This document shows positions 4,459 to 20,486 of a DNA stretch of 28,518 nt, piece after piece (position 1 is the first letter of the stretch; each line of letters starts with the position of its first letter). Source of the DNA: a bacterium BMS3Bbin02 (lineage in GTDB: Bacteria; Actinomycetota; Acidimicrobiia; Spongiisociales; UBA5794); assembly GCA_002898115.1 (NCBI GenBank), contig BDTL01000238.1, positions 1 through 28,518 on the forward strand, in the 5' to 3' direction. The translations under genes and the position numbers were made by a program. The notes beneath the pieces are model-generated. The model was not told where the DNA came from, searched no databases, and saw only the letters and a program-made list of their open reading frames with translations.

Positions 4459-5229
4459 TTACAACCCAGCCAGGAAGTCGTCTTCTTCGGCGACTGGCTC
4501 CGCGCCTAAACTCTTGCGGAGGGCGTCGTACCCACTGGATTCGAGCTCCTCGGCGACCTCAACTCCGCCGCTCTTGACGACACGCCCATCAATCATGACG
4601 TGCACACGATCCGGTTTCATGTAGCGCAGAATCCGGCTGTAGTGAGTGATGAGCAGCACCCCGAGATCAGGAGAGCGTAGCTCTTCGACCAGCTCGGCGA
4701 CCTCACGAACTGCATCTATGTCGAGGCCCGAGTCGATCTCGTCGAGAACAGCGATCTTCGGTTGGACCGCAGCAAGTTGCAGCATCTCGGAACGCTTCTT
4801 CTCGCCACCGGACAGCTCATCGTTGACCGACCGGTTCATGAAGTGTTCCATGTTCAAAGACTCGACGGCCGCGGTGGTGCGCGCACGAAACGCGGCAGGG
4901 TCGGGAGAAGCTTCGGCCATTTCGTCCAACAGCTCCTCAAGCAGCACGCCACCGATCTGTACCGGGTATTGGAAAGCCTGGAAGACGCCGGCGCGCGCCC
5001 GTTCATCAACGGGCATGCCCGATATGTCGATTCCGTCCACAAGGATCGTCCCGGTTGCCTGGTAGTCATCCTTACCGGTCAGGACATGACACAACGTAGA
5101 CTTCCCGGAACCGTTGGGACCCATTAGCACGTGGACCTCCCCGGCGGGTACCTCGAGGTCGACACCCTTCAGGATTAGCAAATCGCCGATCTTGGCTTCA
5201 AGCGACCGAACGGAAAGAGCAAGGCTCAT
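4459..5229 (-). CDS. sufC: Fe-S cluster assembly ATPase SufC
   Basis: 256 aa. Walker A GPNGSGKST, FQAFQYP, LSGGEKKR signature, Walker B VLDEIDSGLDIDA and ITHYSRIL. Adjacent to sufD. Confidence 0.93.
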   Translation of the reverse strand: MSLALSVRSLEAKIGDLLILKGVDLEVPAGEVHVLMGPNGSGKSTLCHVLTGKDDYQATGTILVDGIDISGMPVDERARAGVFQAFQYPVQIGGVLLEELLDEMAEASPDPAAFRARTTAAVESLNMEHFMNRSVNDELSGGEKKRSEMLQLAAVQPKIAVLDEIDSGLDIDAVREVAELVEELRSPDLGVLLITHYSRILRYMKPDRVHVMIDGRVVKSGGVEVAEELESSGYDALRKSLGAEPVAEEDDFLAGL

Positions 5230-5546
5230 GTCTGGTCCTCTCCGATGACGAGCATGACGTCGCCATCCACAACATTGATTTCATACACAGGCACGGGCTG
5301 GGTCGCCGGCAACGCCCCGGGTTTGCCGGTCTCCAGCGAGAACTCTGAACCATGACGAGGACATTCCACGTCACCATCAAAGACCTCCCCCTCCGCGAGC
5401 GAGGCTTCGGCGTGGGAGCATCGGTCGCCGATCGCATAAAACGTGTCCTCGATACGAAAGACTGCGACGCGGTGCTCTCCAACGTCAACGCGTACTCCCT
5501 GGTTCTCAGGAAACGCATCTACATCGCCGATCCGGACGGCTGCCAT
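5226..5546 (-). CDS. Rieske [2Fe-2S] ferredoxin
   Basis: 106 aa. CSH...CPRH Rieske ligands. Overlaps both sufD and sufC, the usual position in actinobacterial suf operons. Confidence 0.9.
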   Translation of the reverse strand: MAAVRIGDVDAFPENQGVRVDVGEHRVAVFRIEDTFYAIGDRCSHAEASLAEGEVFDGDVECPRHGSEFSLETGKPGALPATQPVPVYEINVVDGDVMLVIGEDQT

Positions 5547-6805
5547 CAGACGCGCCCTTCGGACTGAGCGGCAACAAACTTCTTGTTGACGGCAAGCCGA
5601 AGTTCGTCGCGAATGTTTCCGTGGGGTACCTTCACCAGCGCCTCCTCAAAGAAGCCCTTCACCTGGAGACGGTCCGCCTGCGCCTTGTCCAGACCTCGGG
5701 ACATGAGGTAGTACCTTTGGTCTTTGTCGAGAGGCCCCATTGTCGAACCGTGACCACAGCGCACATCGTTGGCGAGAATCTCCAGGTTTGGGACGGACTG
5801 GGCGCTCGCGCCATCCGACAGAATAAGATTGCGGTTCGTTTGGTGAGCGTTGGTCTTTTGGGCGCCCTCTTCGATACGAATCAATCCGGTGAACACGGAT
5901 TCGGCGTCGTCCTCGACGGCTCCCTTCAGAAATATGTTCGACGTGGTGCCAACACCAACATGATCGAGGAAGTAGCGATAGTCGAGCACTTGATCGCGGT
6001 CTCCGAAGTAGGCGCCAATGATCTCCATGTGCGATCCATTGCCGATGAGGTCGGCATCAAAGCGAACTCGCGAGTACACCCCACCAAGACCAATCTCGGT
6101 GAACGTGCCGGTGGCGTTGTCGTCGAGCGTGTAGAACACGTCGGCAATCGCCCTGGTCTTGTCGCCCCATTGCTGCACGACGGTGAGCTTGAAGTGCGAG
6201 TTCTTCCCAATCGACACCTCCAGCTGTGACAGGACAACGGCATCGACCTCCTCGTGTGACGCGAAGTAGACGATCGCCGAAGCCTCAACATTGTCTTCTA
6301 CGACGACAGTGAGATGAGGCAGGCTGACCGTACCGGATCGGGTGGCACTGATCTCGACCGTGAACGGCTCCTCGACCGCCGTCCCGGAACTGATGTGAAG
6401 GAACGCGCCATCGCCGGCGAACGCCCGGTGGATCGCGGCAAAGACATCACGGTCGGCAGGAACACCGCTTCCGAATTTCCCACTGACACAAGGCTCAGTG
6501 GTGTTGCGAGCCGATCCGAATACCACACCGTTCGGCAGGTCGCTCACTAGTTCGCCCATCGCCCCGTCAGTGATGGCAAGTGCCCCACGGGCCGAGCGGA
6601 AGGGTACGTCGAGAGCTGAGGGTACGCCGCTGGTGGCTAGGTCGAAGGATCCAATGTCGAATCTGAGATCGACGTAGCGCCATTCCTCCTGTTTGGCGGA
6701 CGGCATGGACAGGTCTGCAAGAGCTGCAACACCTGACTGCTGGAGGTCAGCGAGCCATGTCGGCAGCGTAGGATCGATTGGGGGGTGCGACTTGAGCGAA
6801 ACCAC
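5546..6805 (-). CDS. sufD: Fe-S cluster assembly protein SufD
   Basis: EEWRYVDL, QTNRNLILS, SVPNLEILANDVRCGHGST and YLMSRGL motifs. Start placed at GTG 6805 because SD GAGGAG lies 4 nt upstream; ATG 6835 is an alternative and the ORF track extends to 6883. Confidence 0.88.
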   Translation of the reverse strand: MVSLKSHPPIDPTLPTWLADLQQSGVAALADLSMPSAKQEEWRYVDLRFDIGSFDLATSGVPSALDVPFRSARGALAITDGAMGELVSDLPNGVVFGSARNTTEPCVSGKFGSGVPADRDVFAAIHRAFAGDGAFLHISSGTAVEEPFTVEISATRSGTVSLPHLTVVVEDNVEASAIVYFASHEEVDAVVLSQLEVSIGKNSHFKLTVVQQWGDKTRAIADVFYTLDDNATGTFTEIGLGGVYSRVRFDADLIGNGSHMEIIGAYFGDRDQVLDYRYFLDHVGVGTTSNIFLKGAVEDDAESVFTGLIRIEEGAQKTNAHQTNRNLILSDGASAQSVPNLEILANDVRCGHGSTMGPLDKDQRYYLMSRGLDKAQADRLQVKGFFEEALVKVPHGNIRDELRLAVNKKFVAAQSEGRV

Positions 6806-6829
6806 GTGTCTCCTCGGGGAATCAGACGC

Positions 6830-6850
6830 CGACATAGTAGTGGCATGTCG
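6830..6850 (-). promoter_or_regulatory. Putative sufD promoter -10 inside a 6-9-6 inverted repeat
   Basis: Minus-strand TACTAT at 6834-6839, within CGACAT-N9-ATGTCG, about 30 nt upstream of the SD-supported GTG. Confidence 0.4.
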
Positions 6851-6879
6851 CGGCGGTCGAGCCGGTACGACAGACCCGA

Positions 6880-7569
6880 TCACGAGCGAAGGTGGCCTCG
6901 AGCTTCGCGGAATACATCATCAAACATGGCCTCGGTGAGACGACCCGTAAACGTGTTTTGCTGACTCGGGTGGTACGACATCACGATGGTGAGGTTACCC
7001 AATCCAATGGCAGCGCTGTGCGTAAATCTCGGCCGAGGTCGTGGAGTCTCGTACCCCTGGTCGGCAAGGAACCGCCACGTCGCCAGATATCCGTATTGAC
7101 CGAGACACACGATGACTTGTTTGTTCGTCAACAGAGCAAGCTCACGCGCCAGAAACGGTGCACAAGCATCACGCTCGACCGGCAGGGGTTTGTTGTCGGG
7201 CGGCGCACACCGAACCGGTGACGTCACCCACGCGTCCGTGAGCACAAGGCCGTCGTCGCGATCTACGCTGGTTGGTTGGTTGGCGAATCCGGCGGTATGC
7301 AGTGCTCGGTACAGCCAGTCGCCCGAACGATCCCCGGTGAACATTCGCCCGGTACGGTTCGCACCGTGCGCCGCGGGAGCAAGACCGACGACCAGGAGGC
7401 GGGCCGCAGGGTCACCGAAACCCGGAACACCCCTCCCCCAGTACTCGTGATCGACGAAAGATGCTCGTTTCACTTCTGCGATGTGCTCGCGCCAATCAAC
7501 GAGCCGCGGACACAACCGACATCGGGCAATCTCGGTAGCCAGACCGGCAAGGTCCGTCACACGGTCCAC
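6880..7569 (-). CDS. udgB: Uracil-DNA glycosylase, family 5 (UdgB type)
   Basis: 229 aa. CRLCPRL Fe-S motif, GLAPAAHGANRTGRMFTGDRSG, VRCAPPDNKP and YHPSQQNT. Confidence 0.88.
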   Translation of the reverse strand: MDRVTDLAGLATEIARCRLCPRLVDWREHIAEVKRASFVDHEYWGRGVPGFGDPAARLLVVGLAPAAHGANRTGRMFTGDRSGDWLYRALHTAGFANQPTSVDRDDGLVLTDAWVTSPVRCAPPDNKPLPVERDACAPFLARELALLTNKQVIVCLGQYGYLATWRFLADQGYETPRPRPRFTHSAAIGLGNLTIVMSYHPSQQNTFTGRLTEAMFDDVFREARGHLRS

Positions 7570-10485: not shown

Positions 10486-10959
10486 CTACGGTGTACGGCT
10501 GCTGCCGCGGTGGGAGTTCAGCGGAATCACGGCGGTCCCCTCGGCGAGGGCACGGTCGTCTGCGACTATCCGAGCAAGGGTCGCCTTCTTGAGCTCGGCG
10601 GCGAATGCATCTTTCGAGGCTCCCCACACCCAGTGAAGTGCGCAGACTTCCTCCCAGTGACACGGTCCTCCCTTGAGAGCACACTCCGCCGCTTCAAGCG
10701 GACCCTCGGTCGCTTCGACTATGTCCAGAAGAGTGACCTCATCTGCGGGGCGGGCAAGAACGTAACCACCGGTCCGCCCAGGACGAGACGCCACCAAACC
10801 ACTGCGTTGAAGAATTGGGAGAATCTGATGAAGGAATCCCTTCGGAATGGTCATCTCCTCCGCCAGCGTGGATGCCGTCACCATCTCCCCTTCATCCCGG
10901 GCGAGATACACCAGGGCACGTATCGCGTAGTCGGTTCTTCGTGTCGGAACGATCTTCAT
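10486..10959 (-). CDS. Rrf2 family transcriptional regulator, probably Fe-S binding
   Basis: 157 aa. DYAIRALVYLA, GLVASRPGRTGGYVLARPA, ITLLDIV-like VTLLDIVEATEG, and C-x6-C-x5-C-x2-H. Confidence 0.9.
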   Translation of the reverse strand: MKIVPTRRTDYAIRALVYLARDEGEMVTASTLAEEMTIPKGFLHQILPILQRSGLVASRPGRTGGYVLARPADEVTLLDIVEATEGPLEAAECALKGGPCHWEEVCALHWVWGASKDAFAAELKKATLARIVADDRALAEGTAVIPLNSHRGSSRTP

Positions 10960-11174: not shown

Positions 11175-11918
11175 ATGAAGAGGGATCTGATCAACACGGG
11201 CCTGCTCTGGCTCGTTCTTACCATCCTCGGTTGGGTCCTGGTTCTCAATTGGAACATCTTTCCTCCCGCGCTTGCACGGGAGGCAGAAATCGTCGATAAC
11301 GCGTTCAACCTCCTCATGGTGCTGGCAGTCCCGGTATTCACATTCATCGTCGCGATCATGATCTACGCAGCGTTCCGCTTCCGAGACCCTGAGCGCACGG
11401 AAGACGGGCCACCGATACGGGAAACCGGACGAATCATGACCGCCTGGCTCGTAGTGACGGTCACACTCGCTGCGGGCATCCTGATCAACCCGGGGTTTGT
11501 GGGTATGGCCGAGATCAGAGCCGGGGGTGAACCCGACATCGTCATCGGCATCACCGGGCAGCGGTGGTCGTGGACGATCAGCTATCCAAACGGCGTGGAC
11601 GTTACGAGCTACACCGGTGAGTTGGTCCTGCCTGTAGACAATCGGATTGAGTTCGAGATCACCAGTCTCGATCCCGATGTCATCCACTCCGTTTGGATCC
11701 CAGCCTTCAGGATCAAGAAGGATGCGGTCCCGGGTCGCATCACCCAAATGTTCATCACACCGACCGAGACAGGATCGTTCGAAGACGACCCGAACGTCCG
11801 GCTCCAGTGCGCGGAGCTCTGTGGACTGGGTCACGCAACCATGGCAATGAAGGTACGCATCGTTGAACAGGCTGAGTTCGACGCGTATCTGGACGAGATT
11901 CTGGCAGAAGGAAGCTGA
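11175..11918 (+). CDS. ctaC: Cytochrome c oxidase subunit II
   Basis: 247 aa. TM helices, GQRWSW, DVIHSVWIP and CuA motif CAELCGLGHATM. No fused cytochrome c domain. Confidence 0.93.
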   Translation: MKRDLINTGLLWLVLTILGWVLVLNWNIFPPALAREAEIVDNAFNLLMVLAVPVFTFIVAIMIYAAFRFRDPERTEDGPPIRETGRIMTAWLVVTVTLAAGILINPGFVGMAEIRAGGEPDIVIGITGQRWSWTISYPNGVDVTSYTGELVLPVDNRIEFEITSLDPDVIHSVWIPAFRIKKDAVPGRITQMFITPTETGSFEDDPNVRLQCAELCGLGHATMAMKVRIVEQAEFDAYLDEILAEGS

Positions 11919-11922
11919 GACT

Positions 11923-13728
11923 ATGTGGCCACTTATTCGCGGGACAGTGTCCGGAATTGTCGGATACCTGATCGGGGCATTGCTCGCAACCGTCACCACA
12001 AGTTCAACGTTTTCGGGGGAGTTTGCACTCGTCCTCGGCTTCGCTTTCGGACTCATGGGTTGGCTCTTTGGCATCGGAATGTGGAACGCTTGGGGTCGCC
12101 AGTGGGTCGGACTCCCCACCAAGAGTGAGGACGCCGACGGGTGGCGTCGCTACTTCCGTTTCAATACCGACCATAAGGTCATCGGGGGCCAGTACCTGGT
12201 CACGATGCTCGTCGTATTTCTCCTAGCAGGCCTTGTCGCTGTAGCGATACGAGCCGAGCTCGCGTCCCCCGGTCAAAGTTTCTTTGCCCCGGACACATAC
12301 AACAAGGTCATGTCGATGCACGGCATCCTGATGATTGCCGTGGCCGTGGCCGGTATTCTTGGAGCCTTCGGGAACTACCTTGTCCCGCTCATGATCGGGG
12401 CAGACGACATGGCGTTCCCCCGCATCAATGCACTCGGCTTTTGGATGATCCCCCCGGTCGCAGTCGCCTTGCTTGCCGCTCCCCTCGTCGGATCATTCAA
12501 CGCCGGGTGGACGTCGTACCCACCGCTCAGCGTGCTCAACGCCGACGGTCAGGTGCTCTTCAACGTTGCGGTGATCACGTTTGGCCTCTCATCTATTCTG
12601 GGAGGCCTCAATATCGTCGCGACTGTAATCACGATGCGAGCGCCCGGCATGACGTGGTGGAAACTTCCGATCTTTGTGTGGGCCGCCTTTGCTGCCTCGA
12701 TCTTGAGCCTCACGGTCACCCAGTTCTTCGCCGCTTCGCTCATCATGATCCTTCTCGACCGTATCGCCGGGACAACCTGGTTCGGCGCACCAGGAGGAGG
12801 CACCGCACTGCTGTACGAGCACGTATTCTGGTTCTACTCACATCCGGCCGTGTACATCATGGTGTTACCGGGGATGGGCGTCATCCTTGAGATCATTGCC
12901 CACTTCTCGCGCAAACCTCTCTTCGCCTACAAGGCCTCAGTCATATCGTTCCTCAGCATCGGCGGAATCGGTTCAATCGTGTGGGCGCATCACATGTTTA
13001 CCAGCGGGATGGCACAAAACCTCGAAGGTCCGTTCATGGCTCTCACTGAGCTTGTGTCCATCCCGACAGGCATCATCTTCCTCGCGGCGATAGGCACGTT
13101 ATGGCGAGGCAAGCTCTGGTTCCAGACCCCGTTACTCCTGGCATTCTTCTGGATATTCCAGTTTCTGATTGGTGGTATCACCGGGATATTCCTGGCCGAC
13201 TTCGTGACAGATCTCTCGCTGCATGACACATACTTCGTGGTCGCGCACTTCCACTACACGATTGTCGGTGGATCCATCTTCGCTTTGATGGCAGGAACCT
13301 TCTATTGGTTCCCGAAGGTAACGGGTCGCATGTACAACGAACGTCTGGGAAAGATCTTTGCTACCTGGTTCTTCGTGTTCTTCCAACTGACATTCATTCC
13401 ACTGTTCTGGGTGGGCCTCAACGGTATGAACCGACGCGTCGGTACCTACCAGGACAACCTCGGTGGCGTGAATCGCTTTGCGAGCGTGATGGCCATGATC
13501 ATGGCGCTCGGGTTCGTCCTCTTTGTCGTCAACCTCTTGTGGTCGGCGAAGCGGGGACCGATCGCGGGAGCAAACCCATGGAACGCCAGGACTCTCGAAT
13601 GGCAGGTGTCCTCTCCTCCACCGAAACACAACTTCGCTACCCCACCCTCGATCGACGGCGGCCCGTACGACTACGGCACCGTCGGAGCGGCCACCCATCT
13701 CAGTGGCGCCACAGAGCCGGTGGGATGA
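11923..13728 (+). CDS. ctaD: Cytochrome c oxidase subunit I, A2 type
   Basis: TDHKVIG, MHG, DMAFPRIN, FWFYSHPAVY, WAHH, HDTYFVVAHFHY and GMNRR. Start at ATG 11923, just after the subunit II stop. Confidence 0.93.
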   Translation: MWPLIRGTVSGIVGYLIGALLATVTTSSTFSGEFALVLGFAFGLMGWLFGIGMWNAWGRQWVGLPTKSEDADGWRRYFRFNTDHKVIGGQYLVTMLVVFLLAGLVAVAIRAELASPGQSFFAPDTYNKVMSMHGILMIAVAVAGILGAFGNYLVPLMIGADDMAFPRINALGFWMIPPVAVALLAAPLVGSFNAGWTSYPPLSVLNADGQVLFNVAVITFGLSSILGGLNIVATVITMRAPGMTWWKLPIFVWAAFAASILSLTVTQFFAASLIMILLDRIAGTTWFGAPGGGTALLYEHVFWFYSHPAVYIMVLPGMGVILEIIAHFSRKPLFAYKASVISFLSIGGIGSIVWAHHMFTSGMAQNLEGPFMALTELVSIPTGIIFLAAIGTLWRGKLWFQTPLLLAFFWIFQFLIGGITGIFLADFVTDLSLHDTYFVVAHFHYTIVGGSIFALMAGTFYWFPKVTGRMYNERLGKIFATWFFVFFQLTFIPLFWVGLNGMNRRVGTYQDNLGGVNRFASVMAMIMALGFVLFVVNLLWSAKRGPIAGANPWNARTLEWQVSSPPPKHNFATPPSIDGGPYDYGTVGAATHLSGATEPVG

Positions 13729-13762
13729 ACCCATGACGAATGAACCCGATGATGGAGGAACG

Positions 13763-13990
13763 ATGACCGCAGCAACATCTACCTACGGTCCCGGAAGCTA
13801 CCGGGACAAGGCGCGATCGGGATGGATCACGGCGGTCCTGCTCGGTGTCCTCACACTGATCGAGTATGCGGTCGCAGTAACGGTGGAAAACCCGCTGCTG
13901 CTCCTGCTCCCGTTTGTTCTCGCCAAGGGTGCATTGATCATGGACTTCTTTATGCACGTGAGGAAACTCCGGACCGGAGGCGATCACTGA
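13763..13990 (+). CDS. ctaF: Cytochrome c oxidase subunit IV (prokaryotic COX4)
   Basis: LGVLTLIEY...AKGALIMDFFMH motif. SD GGAGG at 13754-13758; ATG 13733 is an alternative start. Lies between subunits I and III. Confidence 0.75.
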   Translation: MTAATSTYGPGSYRDKARSGWITAVLLGVLTLIEYAVAVTVENPLLLLLPFVLAKGALIMDFFMHVRKLRTGGDH

Positions 13991-14562
13991 TGACAACCAG
14001 CGCAGAACTCATCGAACACGGTCATGGACCGTCCAAGCAGAGACGGATCAACCAACTCGGGTTGTGGTTGTTTTTTGCCTCCGAAACGTTCCTCTTCGGC
14101 GCCTTTATTTCGTCACGGTTCGCAACGACCCAGACAGAAACGCCAGCCGATCTCAACCAGGCACTTGCTCTAGGGCTCACCATCGTGTTGTTGCTCTCAA
14201 GCATCAGCGCGTACATGGCAGAGACTGCGAACGCCCACGACGATCGCAGAGGGTTCAAGATCTACACGATCGCGACAATTCTCCTGGGTACCCTCTTCCT
14301 CGGAGGCGTCGCTCTGGAGTGGACCGAGGCCCTTGAATACTTCCCCCCCGGGACGATCTACGGTACGGCGTTCTTTAGCCTGGTTGGACTACATGCGTTC
14401 CATGTGCTCACCGGCCTGATTGCACTTCTGGTGATCCTCTTTTTGGGCAAAGAGGGTCGGTTCGGTTCCAAGGACAGTTGGCCGGTCGAGGGTGTCATCA
14501 AGTATTGGCACTTCGTCGACCTTGCGTGGGTCATCATCTACCCGACGCTGTACCTGTTCTGA
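13990..14562 (+). CDS. ctaE: Cytochrome c oxidase subunit III
   Basis: 190 aa. GLWLFFASETFLFG, FFSLVGLHAFHV and YWHFVDLAW. TGATG overlap with subunit IV. Confidence 0.9.
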   Translation: MTTSAELIEHGHGPSKQRRINQLGLWLFFASETFLFGAFISSRFATTQTETPADLNQALALGLTIVLLLSSISAYMAETANAHDDRRGFKIYTIATILLGTLFLGGVALEWTEALEYFPPGTIYGTAFFSLVGLHAFHVLTGLIALLVILFLGKEGRFGSKDSWPVEGVIKYWHFVDLAWVIIYPTLYLF

Positions 14563-19082: not shown

Positions 19083-20486
19083 TTAGCCGACCGAGCCTTC
19101 CATTTGGAGTTCGATCAGGCGGTTCAACTCGACGGCGTACTCCATCGGGAGTTCCTTCACGATCGGTTCGATGAAACCGGCAACGATCATCGCCATGGCT
19201 TCTTGCTCGGAGAGCCCACGAGCCATTAGATAGAACAACTGCTCGTCACCGACCTTGGAAACCGTCGCCTCGTGACCAATGTTGGTGTTCGACTCCTCGA
19301 TCTCCAGATACGGATAGGTATCGGAACGTGAATGCTCATCGAGAATCAGTGCGTCACAGCGAACAAACGAACGGGCATTTACGGCGCCATCCTCCACCCG
19401 CACCAGGCCGCGATAACCTCCGCGTCCACCATCGAGCGAGATCGACTTGGACGTGATGAGCGATGTCGTGTTTGGCGCGACGTGGACCATCTTCGCTCCC
19501 GCATCGAGCACCTGCCCCTTGCCGGCCATGGCTATTGACAACACCTCGCCGTGGGCGCCCTCTTCCATGAGCCACACAGCCGGATACTTCATGGTCAGCC
19601 GAGATCCGAGGTTGCCGTCGATCCACTCCATGGTGGCGTTCTTATAGGCGGCCGCGCGCTTGGTGACCAGGTTGAAGACGTTGGTAGACCAGTTCTGAAT
19701 GGTCGTGTAGCGACAGCGCCCACCCTCCTTGATGATGATCTCAACGACCGCTGAGTGCAGCGAGTCACTCGAGTACGTCGGCGCCGAGCAACCCTCTACG
19801 TAGTGACAGAACGCGCCCTTGTCGATGATGATCAGCGTGCGCTCGAACTGACCCATGTTCTCCGCATTAATCCGGAAGTACGCCTGCAGCGGCTGGTCCA
19901 CATGCACGCCCGGAGGCACGTAGATGAACGATCCTCCCGACCACACGGATGAATTCAACGCTGCGAACTTGTTGTCGTTCGGAGGAATGATCGTCCCGAA
20001 GTACTCCTTGACGAGCTCCGGGTAGTCACGGACCGCAGTGTCCATATCGCAGAAGATCACACCGAGCTCTTCGAGATCTTCACGGTTGCGGTGATACACG
20101 ACTTCAGACTCGTACTGTGCGGTTACGCCGGCGAGATACTTACGCTCGGCTTCGGGGATCCCGAGCTTTTCGTAGGTCTCCTTGATGGAGTCCGGAACCA
20201 TGTCCCAGTCATTGACCTGGGACTCGGTTGGCTTGATGTAGTAGTAGATGTCGTCGAAGTCGATCTCGTCGAGCAACCCGCCACCACCCCACGTCGGCAT
20301 TGGCTTGGCAAGGAACCGCTTGTACGCCTTGAGGCGGAAATTGAGCATCCACTCAGGTTCCTTCTTCATGCGTGACATCTCGCGGATGAGCGCTTCGTCT
20401 AGACCCTTTTCGGGCTTGAAGACATAGTCCTCCTCATCGGCCCAGCCGAGGGAGTACTTACCAAGATCAACATCTACAACTGACAC
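19083..20486 (-). CDS. sufB: Fe-S cluster assembly protein SufB
   Basis: 467 aa. ISRMK-like [50 protein letters not shown] and YLMARG. SD GGAGAGG upstream of GTG. Confidence 0.94.

Follow-up and report, generated by a model that had tools for sequence, protein, structure and literature searches.

How does an oxygen reductase of the haem-copper A family bring protons to its active site when the lysine of its K pathway is missing? The question is raised by an operon, coxB-coxA-coxD-coxC, found at positions 11175 to 14562 of a DNA stretch from the bacterium BMS3Bbin02 (Actinomycetota; Acidimicrobiia; Spongiisociales; UBA5794). The whole stretch analysed, hereafter the window, comprises 28,518 nucleotides (assembly GCA_002898115.1, contig BDTL01000238.1, positions 1 to 28,518 of the forward strand). 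Judged by its encoded sequences, the operon specifies a complete haem-copper oxidase of the A2 type with a CuA site, from a marine member of the Acidimicrobiia. A preliminary description, made from the DNA letters, had noticed that the K-pathway Lys is replaced in subunit I. The explanation that accounts best for the whole of the observations, with a probability of about 0.6, is a Lys-less oxidase of the “2TM” branch, which would be supplied with protons through the D pathway and in which a Glu-Ser pair of helix VIII would compensate for the lost Lys. Three elements of coxA are central to this question:

12835 to 12855, plus strand: helix VI motif YSHPAVY, with the A2-type Tyr-Ser pair, the CuB ligand His307 and Tyr311; invariant in 121 of 121 clade sequences

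12886 to 12888, plus strand: CTT codon of Leu322, at the K-pathway Ser position (Ser299 in Rhodobacter sphaeroides); Leu in 121 of 121 clade sequences

13045 to 13077, plus strand: helix VIII signature T-E-L-V-S-I-P-T-G-I-I, with Thr375, Glu376, Ser379, Thr382 and Ile385

Loss of the Canonical K Pathway

In the numbering of Paracoccus denitrificans, the K pathway consists of Lys354, Thr351, Ser291 and Tyr280 (Sousa et al. 2011). HMMER alignments to the caa3 oxidase of Thermus thermophilus, to plant mitochondrial COX1 and to the CtaD proteins of C. glutamicum and M. tuberculosis all set Ile385 (ATC, 13075-13077) opposite the K-pathway Lys. The numbering of helix VIII could be fixed by an ungapped local match to the R. 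sphaeroides structure 1M56 (query 5-38 to chain 347-380), which makes Thr375, Glu376 (GAG, 13048-13050), Ser379 (TCC, 13057-13059), Thr382 and Ile385 the equivalents of Thr352, Glu353, Ser356, Thr359 and Ile362, respectively. The isoleucine first reported at the Lys position is thus borne out, since alignments to solved structures place no Lys there. The replacement of Ser299 by Leu is a further change of the K pathway, which the preliminary description did not contain.

The entrance in subunit II is altered as well, as had been proposed from the motif IMTAW. The segment “grIMTAW” (11433-11447) aligns with “spLEIAW” of R. sphaeroides (1M56_B) and “drLEVVW” of T. thermophilus (2YEV_B), so that the entry Glu (Glu101 in R. 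sphaeroides) is replaced by Met (ATG, 11436-11438); V, L, S, A or M is found at this position in nine relatives. Alignment thus shows that the canonical K pathway is gone in both predicted subunits, through the changes of Lys362 to Ile, Ser299 to Leu and subunit II Glu101 to Met. Under the strict 2011 definition the pathway fails, the Thr and Tyr alone being retained, and coxA nevertheless falls within the A family by phylogeny. The idea that the oxidase is a variant whose canonical K channel is absent or rewired is therefore supported, the three positions being hydrophobic clade-wide across both subunits. When solved structures were searched with helix VIII alone, the five alignments listed were to Lys-bearing chains only, with no Lys-less structure of this type among them.

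Oxygen-Reducing Site, D Pathway, and Fold

The remainder of the catalytic machinery agrees closely with the first reading of the locus. The six His ligands (H133, H307, H356, H357, H442, and H444), the predicted cross-link Tyr311, recognized as a residue from the sequence, and the D-pathway residues Y91, N151, D162, N169, S223, S224, and N230 are each present in at least 120 of the 121 sequences of the clade alignment. The A2 Tyr-Ser pair was likewise confirmed, with Ala at the helix VI position of the A1 Glu, and the coordinates initially given for YSHPAVY, for the Ile, Glu and Ser codons and for IMTAW were all correct. As the D pathway has been defined by Asp124, Asn113, Asn131, Asn199, Tyr35 and Ser193 of P. 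denitrificans (Sousa et al. 2011), the alignment shows both the predicted oxygen-reducing site and this pathway to be intact.

These features also delimit the family. The complete D pathway and the weak matches to ba3 oxidase do not fit membership of the B family. Nitric oxide (NO) reductases are characterized by the absence of the cross-link Tyr and by Glu-containing FeB motifs (PMC3084760, PMC11214002), whereas Tyr311 and the three CuB His are present here. The coxA product reaches 596 bits against TIGR02891, under the cut-off of 670.75. Its homologues of 601-613 residues align from residue 1, and 14 transmembrane helices are predicted, the first two forming an N-terminal extension (residues 2-61). 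In the AlphaFold2 model (predicted local distance difference test score, pLDDT, of 81; predicted template modelling score of 0.85), helices 2-26 and 33-61 precede the canonical twelve, with block pLDDT values of 70-93 over residues 1-70. The hydropathy peaks before the TDHK motif agree with these two extra helices.

Conservation and Function of the Lys-Less Enzyme

An error of sequencing or assembly at the Ile codon, or a decaying gene, would be the simplest way to account for such a substitution. This explanation is refuted by the following results and has a negligible probability. The motif T-E-x-x-S-[IV]-P-T-G-x-[IVL] is found in 120 of the 120 best homologues, down to 63% identity. In the clade alignment, Glu353, Ser356, Thr359 and Leu299 are invariant, and the Lys position is occupied by Ile (97 sequences), Val (23) or Leu (1). 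A contig from a second marine sample spans 12454-13313 with no listed difference at codons 13048-13077, which encode the Glu, Ser and Ile; the sequencing error at 13075-13077 that the preliminary description had envisaged is thus not upheld. Moreover, the reading frames are intact, with coupled starts, and the ratio of nonsynonymous to synonymous substitution rates is 0.048 against the orthologue of a same-genus genome (G002, 90% amino-acid identity). The gene is under strong purifying selection.

The distribution of the enzyme among related genomes points to a respiratory role. Most of the 25 relatives compared carry a canonical A1 oxidase (GHPEVY, PTGIK), and the Lys-less type is found in 8 of 26 genomes when the window's own is included. 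One genome in this tally, G018, is unpublished, and none of the conclusions depends on it. It is the sole A-family subunit I found in G007, G008, and G012 (96, 95, and 99% complete), three genomes in which cytochrome bd gave no match; G030 likewise has a single match, of the Lys-less type. Because it is the sole A-family oxidase detected in several near-complete relatives where cytochrome bd was not found, the Lys-less enzyme must work as a respiratory oxygen reductase. Haem A synthase is encoded in the window's genome. When 150 Acidimicrobiia genomes with a completeness of at least 90% were sampled evenly, a copy with 51% identity or higher was present in about 8 of them; the Lys-less type is thus a trait of few genomes, clustered in the family to which the window's organism belongs.

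Two other genes of the window's genome recall haem-copper oxidases. One, which lies beside a cytochrome b gene, encodes a 661-residue protein in which a CcoN-like domain (Pfam COX1, 82 bits) is joined to a FixO/cytochrome c domain (G000 contig C256:6534-7709; locus L002:811-2796, minus strand). It is a very divergent second homologue, which in an alignment to cbb3 CcoN has Arg, Thr-Gln and Glu in place of the His ligands of CuB and haem; it looks like a haem-copper oxidase scaffold predicted to be devoid of metal ligands, and low-scoring copies similar to it occur in most relatives. The other is a COX2/CuA-like domain ending a 697-residue open frame at a contig edge (G000 contig C150:154-330, locus L004), which may be of NosZ type or a second subunit II.

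A Glu-x-x-Ser Pair Associated with the Loss of the Lys

Which residues accompany the loss of the Lys was examined in a set of 150 A-family representatives, sorted by the residue at the Lys position. After the Lys itself, the strongest discriminators are Glu at 353 and Ser at 356, where Lys-bearing sequences have Met, Leu or Ile, and Ala or Gly, respectively; the losses of Phe364 and Trp366 and of Ser299 come next. Like Glu353 itself, the Glu-x-x-Ser pair, which goes with a hydrophobic residue at the Lys position, occurs in 17 of 55 Lys-less representatives vs none of 77 Lys-bearing ones. In a FastTree phylogeny of the representatives, built without the discriminating columns, the Glu type forms two groups: a bacterial one, which includes the window protein and the CoxA of Acidiferrobacter thiooxydans, and a separate archaeal one (Marsarchaeota, marine Euryarchaeota, Hydrothermarchaeota, and Thermoplasmata). 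In one sister pair with good support, the Lys/Glu switch is precisely what sets the two members apart, P0126 having the Lys and P0129 the Glu without Lys. The link between Glu353 and the loss of Lys is suggestive, not proven.

The Glu is not shared by all Lys-less enzymes. A separate A-family clade, well supported in the tree (P0140, P0167, P0176, P0190, P0209, and others), carries Gln or His instead of the Lys; its members keep Ser299 and show Met at 353, with an otherwise complete active site. Since this clade is devoid of the Glu, at least two different Lys-less solutions exist. The nearest Lys-bearing relatives of the window enzyme are A2 oxidases of Solirubrobacterales and Thermoleophilia type. 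Related loci among the matches listed are mostly Lys-bearing A2 oxidases of Solirubrobacterales and cyanobacteria, and four are of the Glu type (Acidimicrobiia, Acidimicrobiaceae, Dehalococcoidia, and Elusimicrobia), with no cultured strain among them. No mention of the Glu353/Ser356 pair was found in the literature searched.

Where the pair lies can be estimated from the model. According to the AlphaFold2 model and to hydropathy, helix VIII comprises residues 365-393 and crosses the membrane from its outer face inward. Glu376 is its 12th residue and the CuB ligand His307 the 13th of helix VI, which puts them at about equal depth. Ser379 lies approximately one turn below, near the depth of Tyr311, with Thr382 and Ile385 deeper toward the cytoplasm. 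By helix periodicity, Thr352, Ser356 and Thr359 share one face, which Glu353 adjoins. The preliminary description had pointed to a new Glu and a Ser upstream on the helix. Both are indeed present, and given this direction of helix VIII, Glu376 lies closer to the active site than the Lys position does, and not closer to the entrance. In the model it is thus a titratable residue buried next to the active site and does not form a new channel entrance.

Two other identities were considered for Glu376. That of an entry Glu at the channel mouth, replacing the one lost from subunit II, was rejected, position 353 being nine residues nearer the active site than 362. Equivalence with Glu280 of the cytochrome c-type NO reductase (cNOR) was dropped, since a count from the CuB His pair with NorB residue numbers, made without a NorB alignment, puts the two residues apart by two positions and on different faces.

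Proton Supply to the Active Site

With the D-pathway supply favored here, the hydrophobic lower K region would be closed, and protons would reach the active site mainly via the D pathway. The Glu353-Ser356 pair would probably act as a local protonatable relay and as a charge compensator, in place of a mobile Lys. Such a relay would make the Lys, the helix VI Ser and the subunit II Glu dispensable.

Several points weigh against this explanation. Lys-to-Met mutants of canonical enzymes are nearly inactive, so that a supply by the D pathway only requires compensation; in those enzymes, Lys mutations block the reduction of haem a3. The orientation of Glu376 and Ser379 toward Tyr311 and CuB is predicted from helix periodicity alone. 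The anticorrelation between Glu and Lys may partly reflect shared ancestry, and an independent-pairs test of Glu gain vs Lys loss, which had four pairs of which one was informative, is underpowered. The window's genome is only 73% complete, so that a canonical oxidase may have escaped detection, and a canonical A1 enzyme is also present in same-genus relatives; the Lys-less enzyme may thus be a second oxidase in this organism. Lastly, the Thr359 position is occupied by Phe in several archaeal Glu-bearing sequences, which argues against a single conserved hydroxyl ladder.

This last substitution also bears on a different proposal, in which a K-type input path from the cytoplasmic side would have been rebuilt from water together with Thr359, Ser356 and Glu353, two input channels being retained. 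Thr382, Ser379, Thr375 and Glu376 are indeed invariant in the clade and form one helix stripe, the Glu type more often has basic residues at q337 and q397, close to the inner surface, and B-family enzymes work with Thr, Ser and Tyr only (PMC3084760). However, all clade members have hydrophobic residues along the lower half of the path (Ile or Val at 362, Leu at 299, and Met, Val or Leu in subunit II), and with the archaeal Phe added, a rebuilt path looks rather unlikely.

Still less probable is a C-family-like “KC” channel made of helix VII hydroxyls. The label “KC-channel” is attached to the COX1 of Acidimicrobium and Acidithrix, two Acidimicrobiia, in the supplementary table of Degli Esposti et al. 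(PMC8239418), and helix VII of the window protein is Ser-rich; its Ser350 stands at a position of Gly in canonical enzymes and shows 95% conservation within the clade. The remaining serines of helix VII nevertheless vary across Glu-type sequences (V, A or I at q339), and the invariant discriminators are on helix VIII, not on helix VII.

Beyond the window's own clade, the Glu-x-x-Ser motif could take over the function of the K-pathway Lys by means of a carboxylate, having arisen or been kept in Lys-less A-family oxidases of bacteria and archaea alike, those of iron oxidizers included. This broader proposal is tentative and somewhat doubtful.

Relation to the Published 2TM Branch and to Other Oxidases

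A subclade named “2TM Chloroflexi & Actinobacteria” has been described by Degli Esposti et al. in 2021 (PMC8239418), spanning Chloroflexi, Acidimicrobia and Ca. Dormibacter. Two additional N-terminal helices characterize its COX1, and the K channel is scored as “no: KC, hybrid or modified”; Acidimicrobium and Acidithrix are tabulated with L or I at Lys354, M or A at Ser291 and Q at COX2 Glu78. The A-family members with the 2TM extension include Acidithrix ferrooxidans, Acidimicrobium ferrooxidans, metagenome-assembled genomes of Ca. Dormibacter and Chloroflexi, and the Acidiferrobacter/Acidithiobacillus group (PMC8239418). A 2020 preprint by Degli Esposti et al. (10.1101/2020.03.01.968255) has reported the replacement of the COX1 Lys by a hydrophobic residue, such as Ile, in acidophilic iron oxidizers and their relatives, among which Acidithrix and environmental Actinobacteria and Chloroflexi; there, the COX2 entry Glu is lost and the D channel retained, which was called a rare case of A2-type enzyme without a functional K channel.

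The window enzyme resembles this branch in its two extra N-terminal helices, in the change of Lys to Ile, Leu or Val, in its retained D pathway and A2 type, in the replacement of both the helix VI Ser and the subunit II entry Glu, and in its host class, Acidimicrobiia. The A. thiooxydans CoxA (P0133) has the same T-E-x-x-S helix VIII. From these shared sequence traits, the window oxidase is assigned to the published 2TM branch. Differences are found in habitat, the window enzyme coming from neutral marine water and the 2TM members from acidic iron-oxidizing settings, and at the subunit II entry position, with Met here vs Gln in the listed 2TM Acidimicrobiia. Neither the Glu nor the Ser of helix VIII is given a column in the published K-channel table. 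Caa3_CtaG (PF09678), which is listed for the 2TM subclade, gave no match in the window's genome at its 73% completeness. The preliminary description had considered that an already characterized subfamily might have the same substitution, and this turned out to be partly so, in the form of the published 2TM subclade. Because exactly the same substitution has been published for it, the system is not under-described at the sequence level, contrary to what had first been suggested. No biochemistry on the 2TM branch was found in the literature searched.

Among solved structures, the caa3 oxidase of T. thermophilus (PDB 2YEV) is the best match (E = 1.8e-126 over residues 81-573). It shares the A2-type YSHP.VY motif, the D pathway, the haem and copper ligands and a CuA subunit II. 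Unlike the window enzyme, it possesses both the Lys (“vptgvKlf”) and the entry Glu of subunit II, a cytochrome c fused to subunit II and a fused subunit I+III, and is devoid of the two-helix N-terminal extension. The B-family ba3 oxidase of T. thermophilus (PDB 1EHK, 1XME) is, like the window enzyme, an oxygen reductase without Lys in its K-type channel. It is distant from the window protein (E values of 1e-5 to 1e-3) and has no D pathway, its Thr/Ser/Tyr K-analogue being the sole channel, whereas the window enzyme has a complete D pathway.

Organization of the Operon and Its Surroundings

The operon consists of four co-directional genes, not three, in the order II-I-IV-III, with a regulator gene on the opposite strand:

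11175 to 11918, plus strand: coxB, subunit II, 247 residues; TIGR02866 CoxB at 161.8 bits (above the cut-off), Pfam COX2

11923 to 13728, plus strand: coxA, subunit I, 601 residues from the ATG at 11923; Pfam COX1 at 435.8 bits

13733 to 13990, plus strand: coxD, subunit IV, 85 residues, two helices; Pfam PF03626 COX4_pro at 32.7 bits (cut-off 28.9)

13990 to 14562, plus strand: coxC, short subunit III, 190 residues; Pfam COX3 at 62 bits, nearest NCBIfam models CtaE and QoxC

10486 to 10959, minus strand: Rrf2-family transcription regulator; Pfam PF02082 at 127 bits

The subunit IV gene had been passed over initially. It was found between coxA and coxC by Pfam and by tblastn searches, the latter of which also locate it there at 8 of 9 related loci. 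Its stop codon shares bases with the start codon of coxC (TGATG). The start of coxC is the ATG at 13990 and not 13822; the longer open reading frame from 13822 is unsupported because the orthologues align solely from 13990. The coxB product has two transmembrane helices and a CuA domain without fused cytochrome c, and its CuA ligand set H, C, E, C, H, M is intact (H..C.E.C...H..M; HSVWIP ... CAELCGLGHATM).

The Rrf2 gene is divergent from coxB, with a spacer of 215 bp. A divergent orthologue stands beside the same operon in the relatives G002, G005 and G016, and not in G008, G009 and G012. Rrf2 regulators include sensors of NO and of redox state, and their presence here and in three relatives could suggest an enzyme specialized for NO or peroxide chemistry and not primarily an oxygen-respiring proton pump. 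Such a specialization is very improbable. The site is that of a full oxygen reductase, with its three CuB His and the cross-link Tyr that NO reductases of the superfamily do not have (PMC11214002), and no terminal oxidase other than this enzyme was detected in G007, G008, and G012. The Rrf2 protein itself reaches no specific NCBIfam model: it receives a superfamily assignment only, the RirA, IscR and NsrR models all scoring below their cut-offs.

The genes around the operon are housekeeping ones, including SUF genes, nucS, a sigma factor and the box operon. The SUF genes are split, with a SufB/D-type gene at 19083-20486 and a second one, together with a Rieske ferredoxin and an ABC ATPase, at 4459-6883. 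Between these parts, about 12 kb hold the box operon, nucS, the oxidase operon, the Rrf2 gene, the sigma factor, a DUF4015 protein and a uracil-DNA glycosylase. This arrangement recurs in the same-genus genome G002. The nearest homologues are named Acidimicrobiia or Acidimicrobiales, many of them from marine surveys, and the window DNA was found in marine metagenome runs, with no RNA runs among the sequencing runs listed.

Significance of a Natural Lys-Less Oxidase

The loss of the Lys itself is already in the literature, and the window enzyme is a new marine member of a catalogued branch, not a new system. What is added to the published branch is the conserved Glu-x-x-Ser pair, the coxD subunit IV and the divergent Rrf2 regulator. 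The Lys-less variant is also not restricted to acidophiles. Since the K-pathway Lys is regarded as indispensable in A-family oxidases, natural enzymes without it test both the role of this Lys and the need for two channels. The marine Acidimicrobiia in which the Lys-less type is the sole A-family oxidase found provide a ready-made natural test, and Glu353 and Ser356 form a defined, strictly conserved candidate compensating pair, open to mutagenesis. If its role is as proposed, the Glu-x-x-Ser pair would add a third solution to the supply or compensation of protons at the Tyr-CuB site of haem-copper oxidases.

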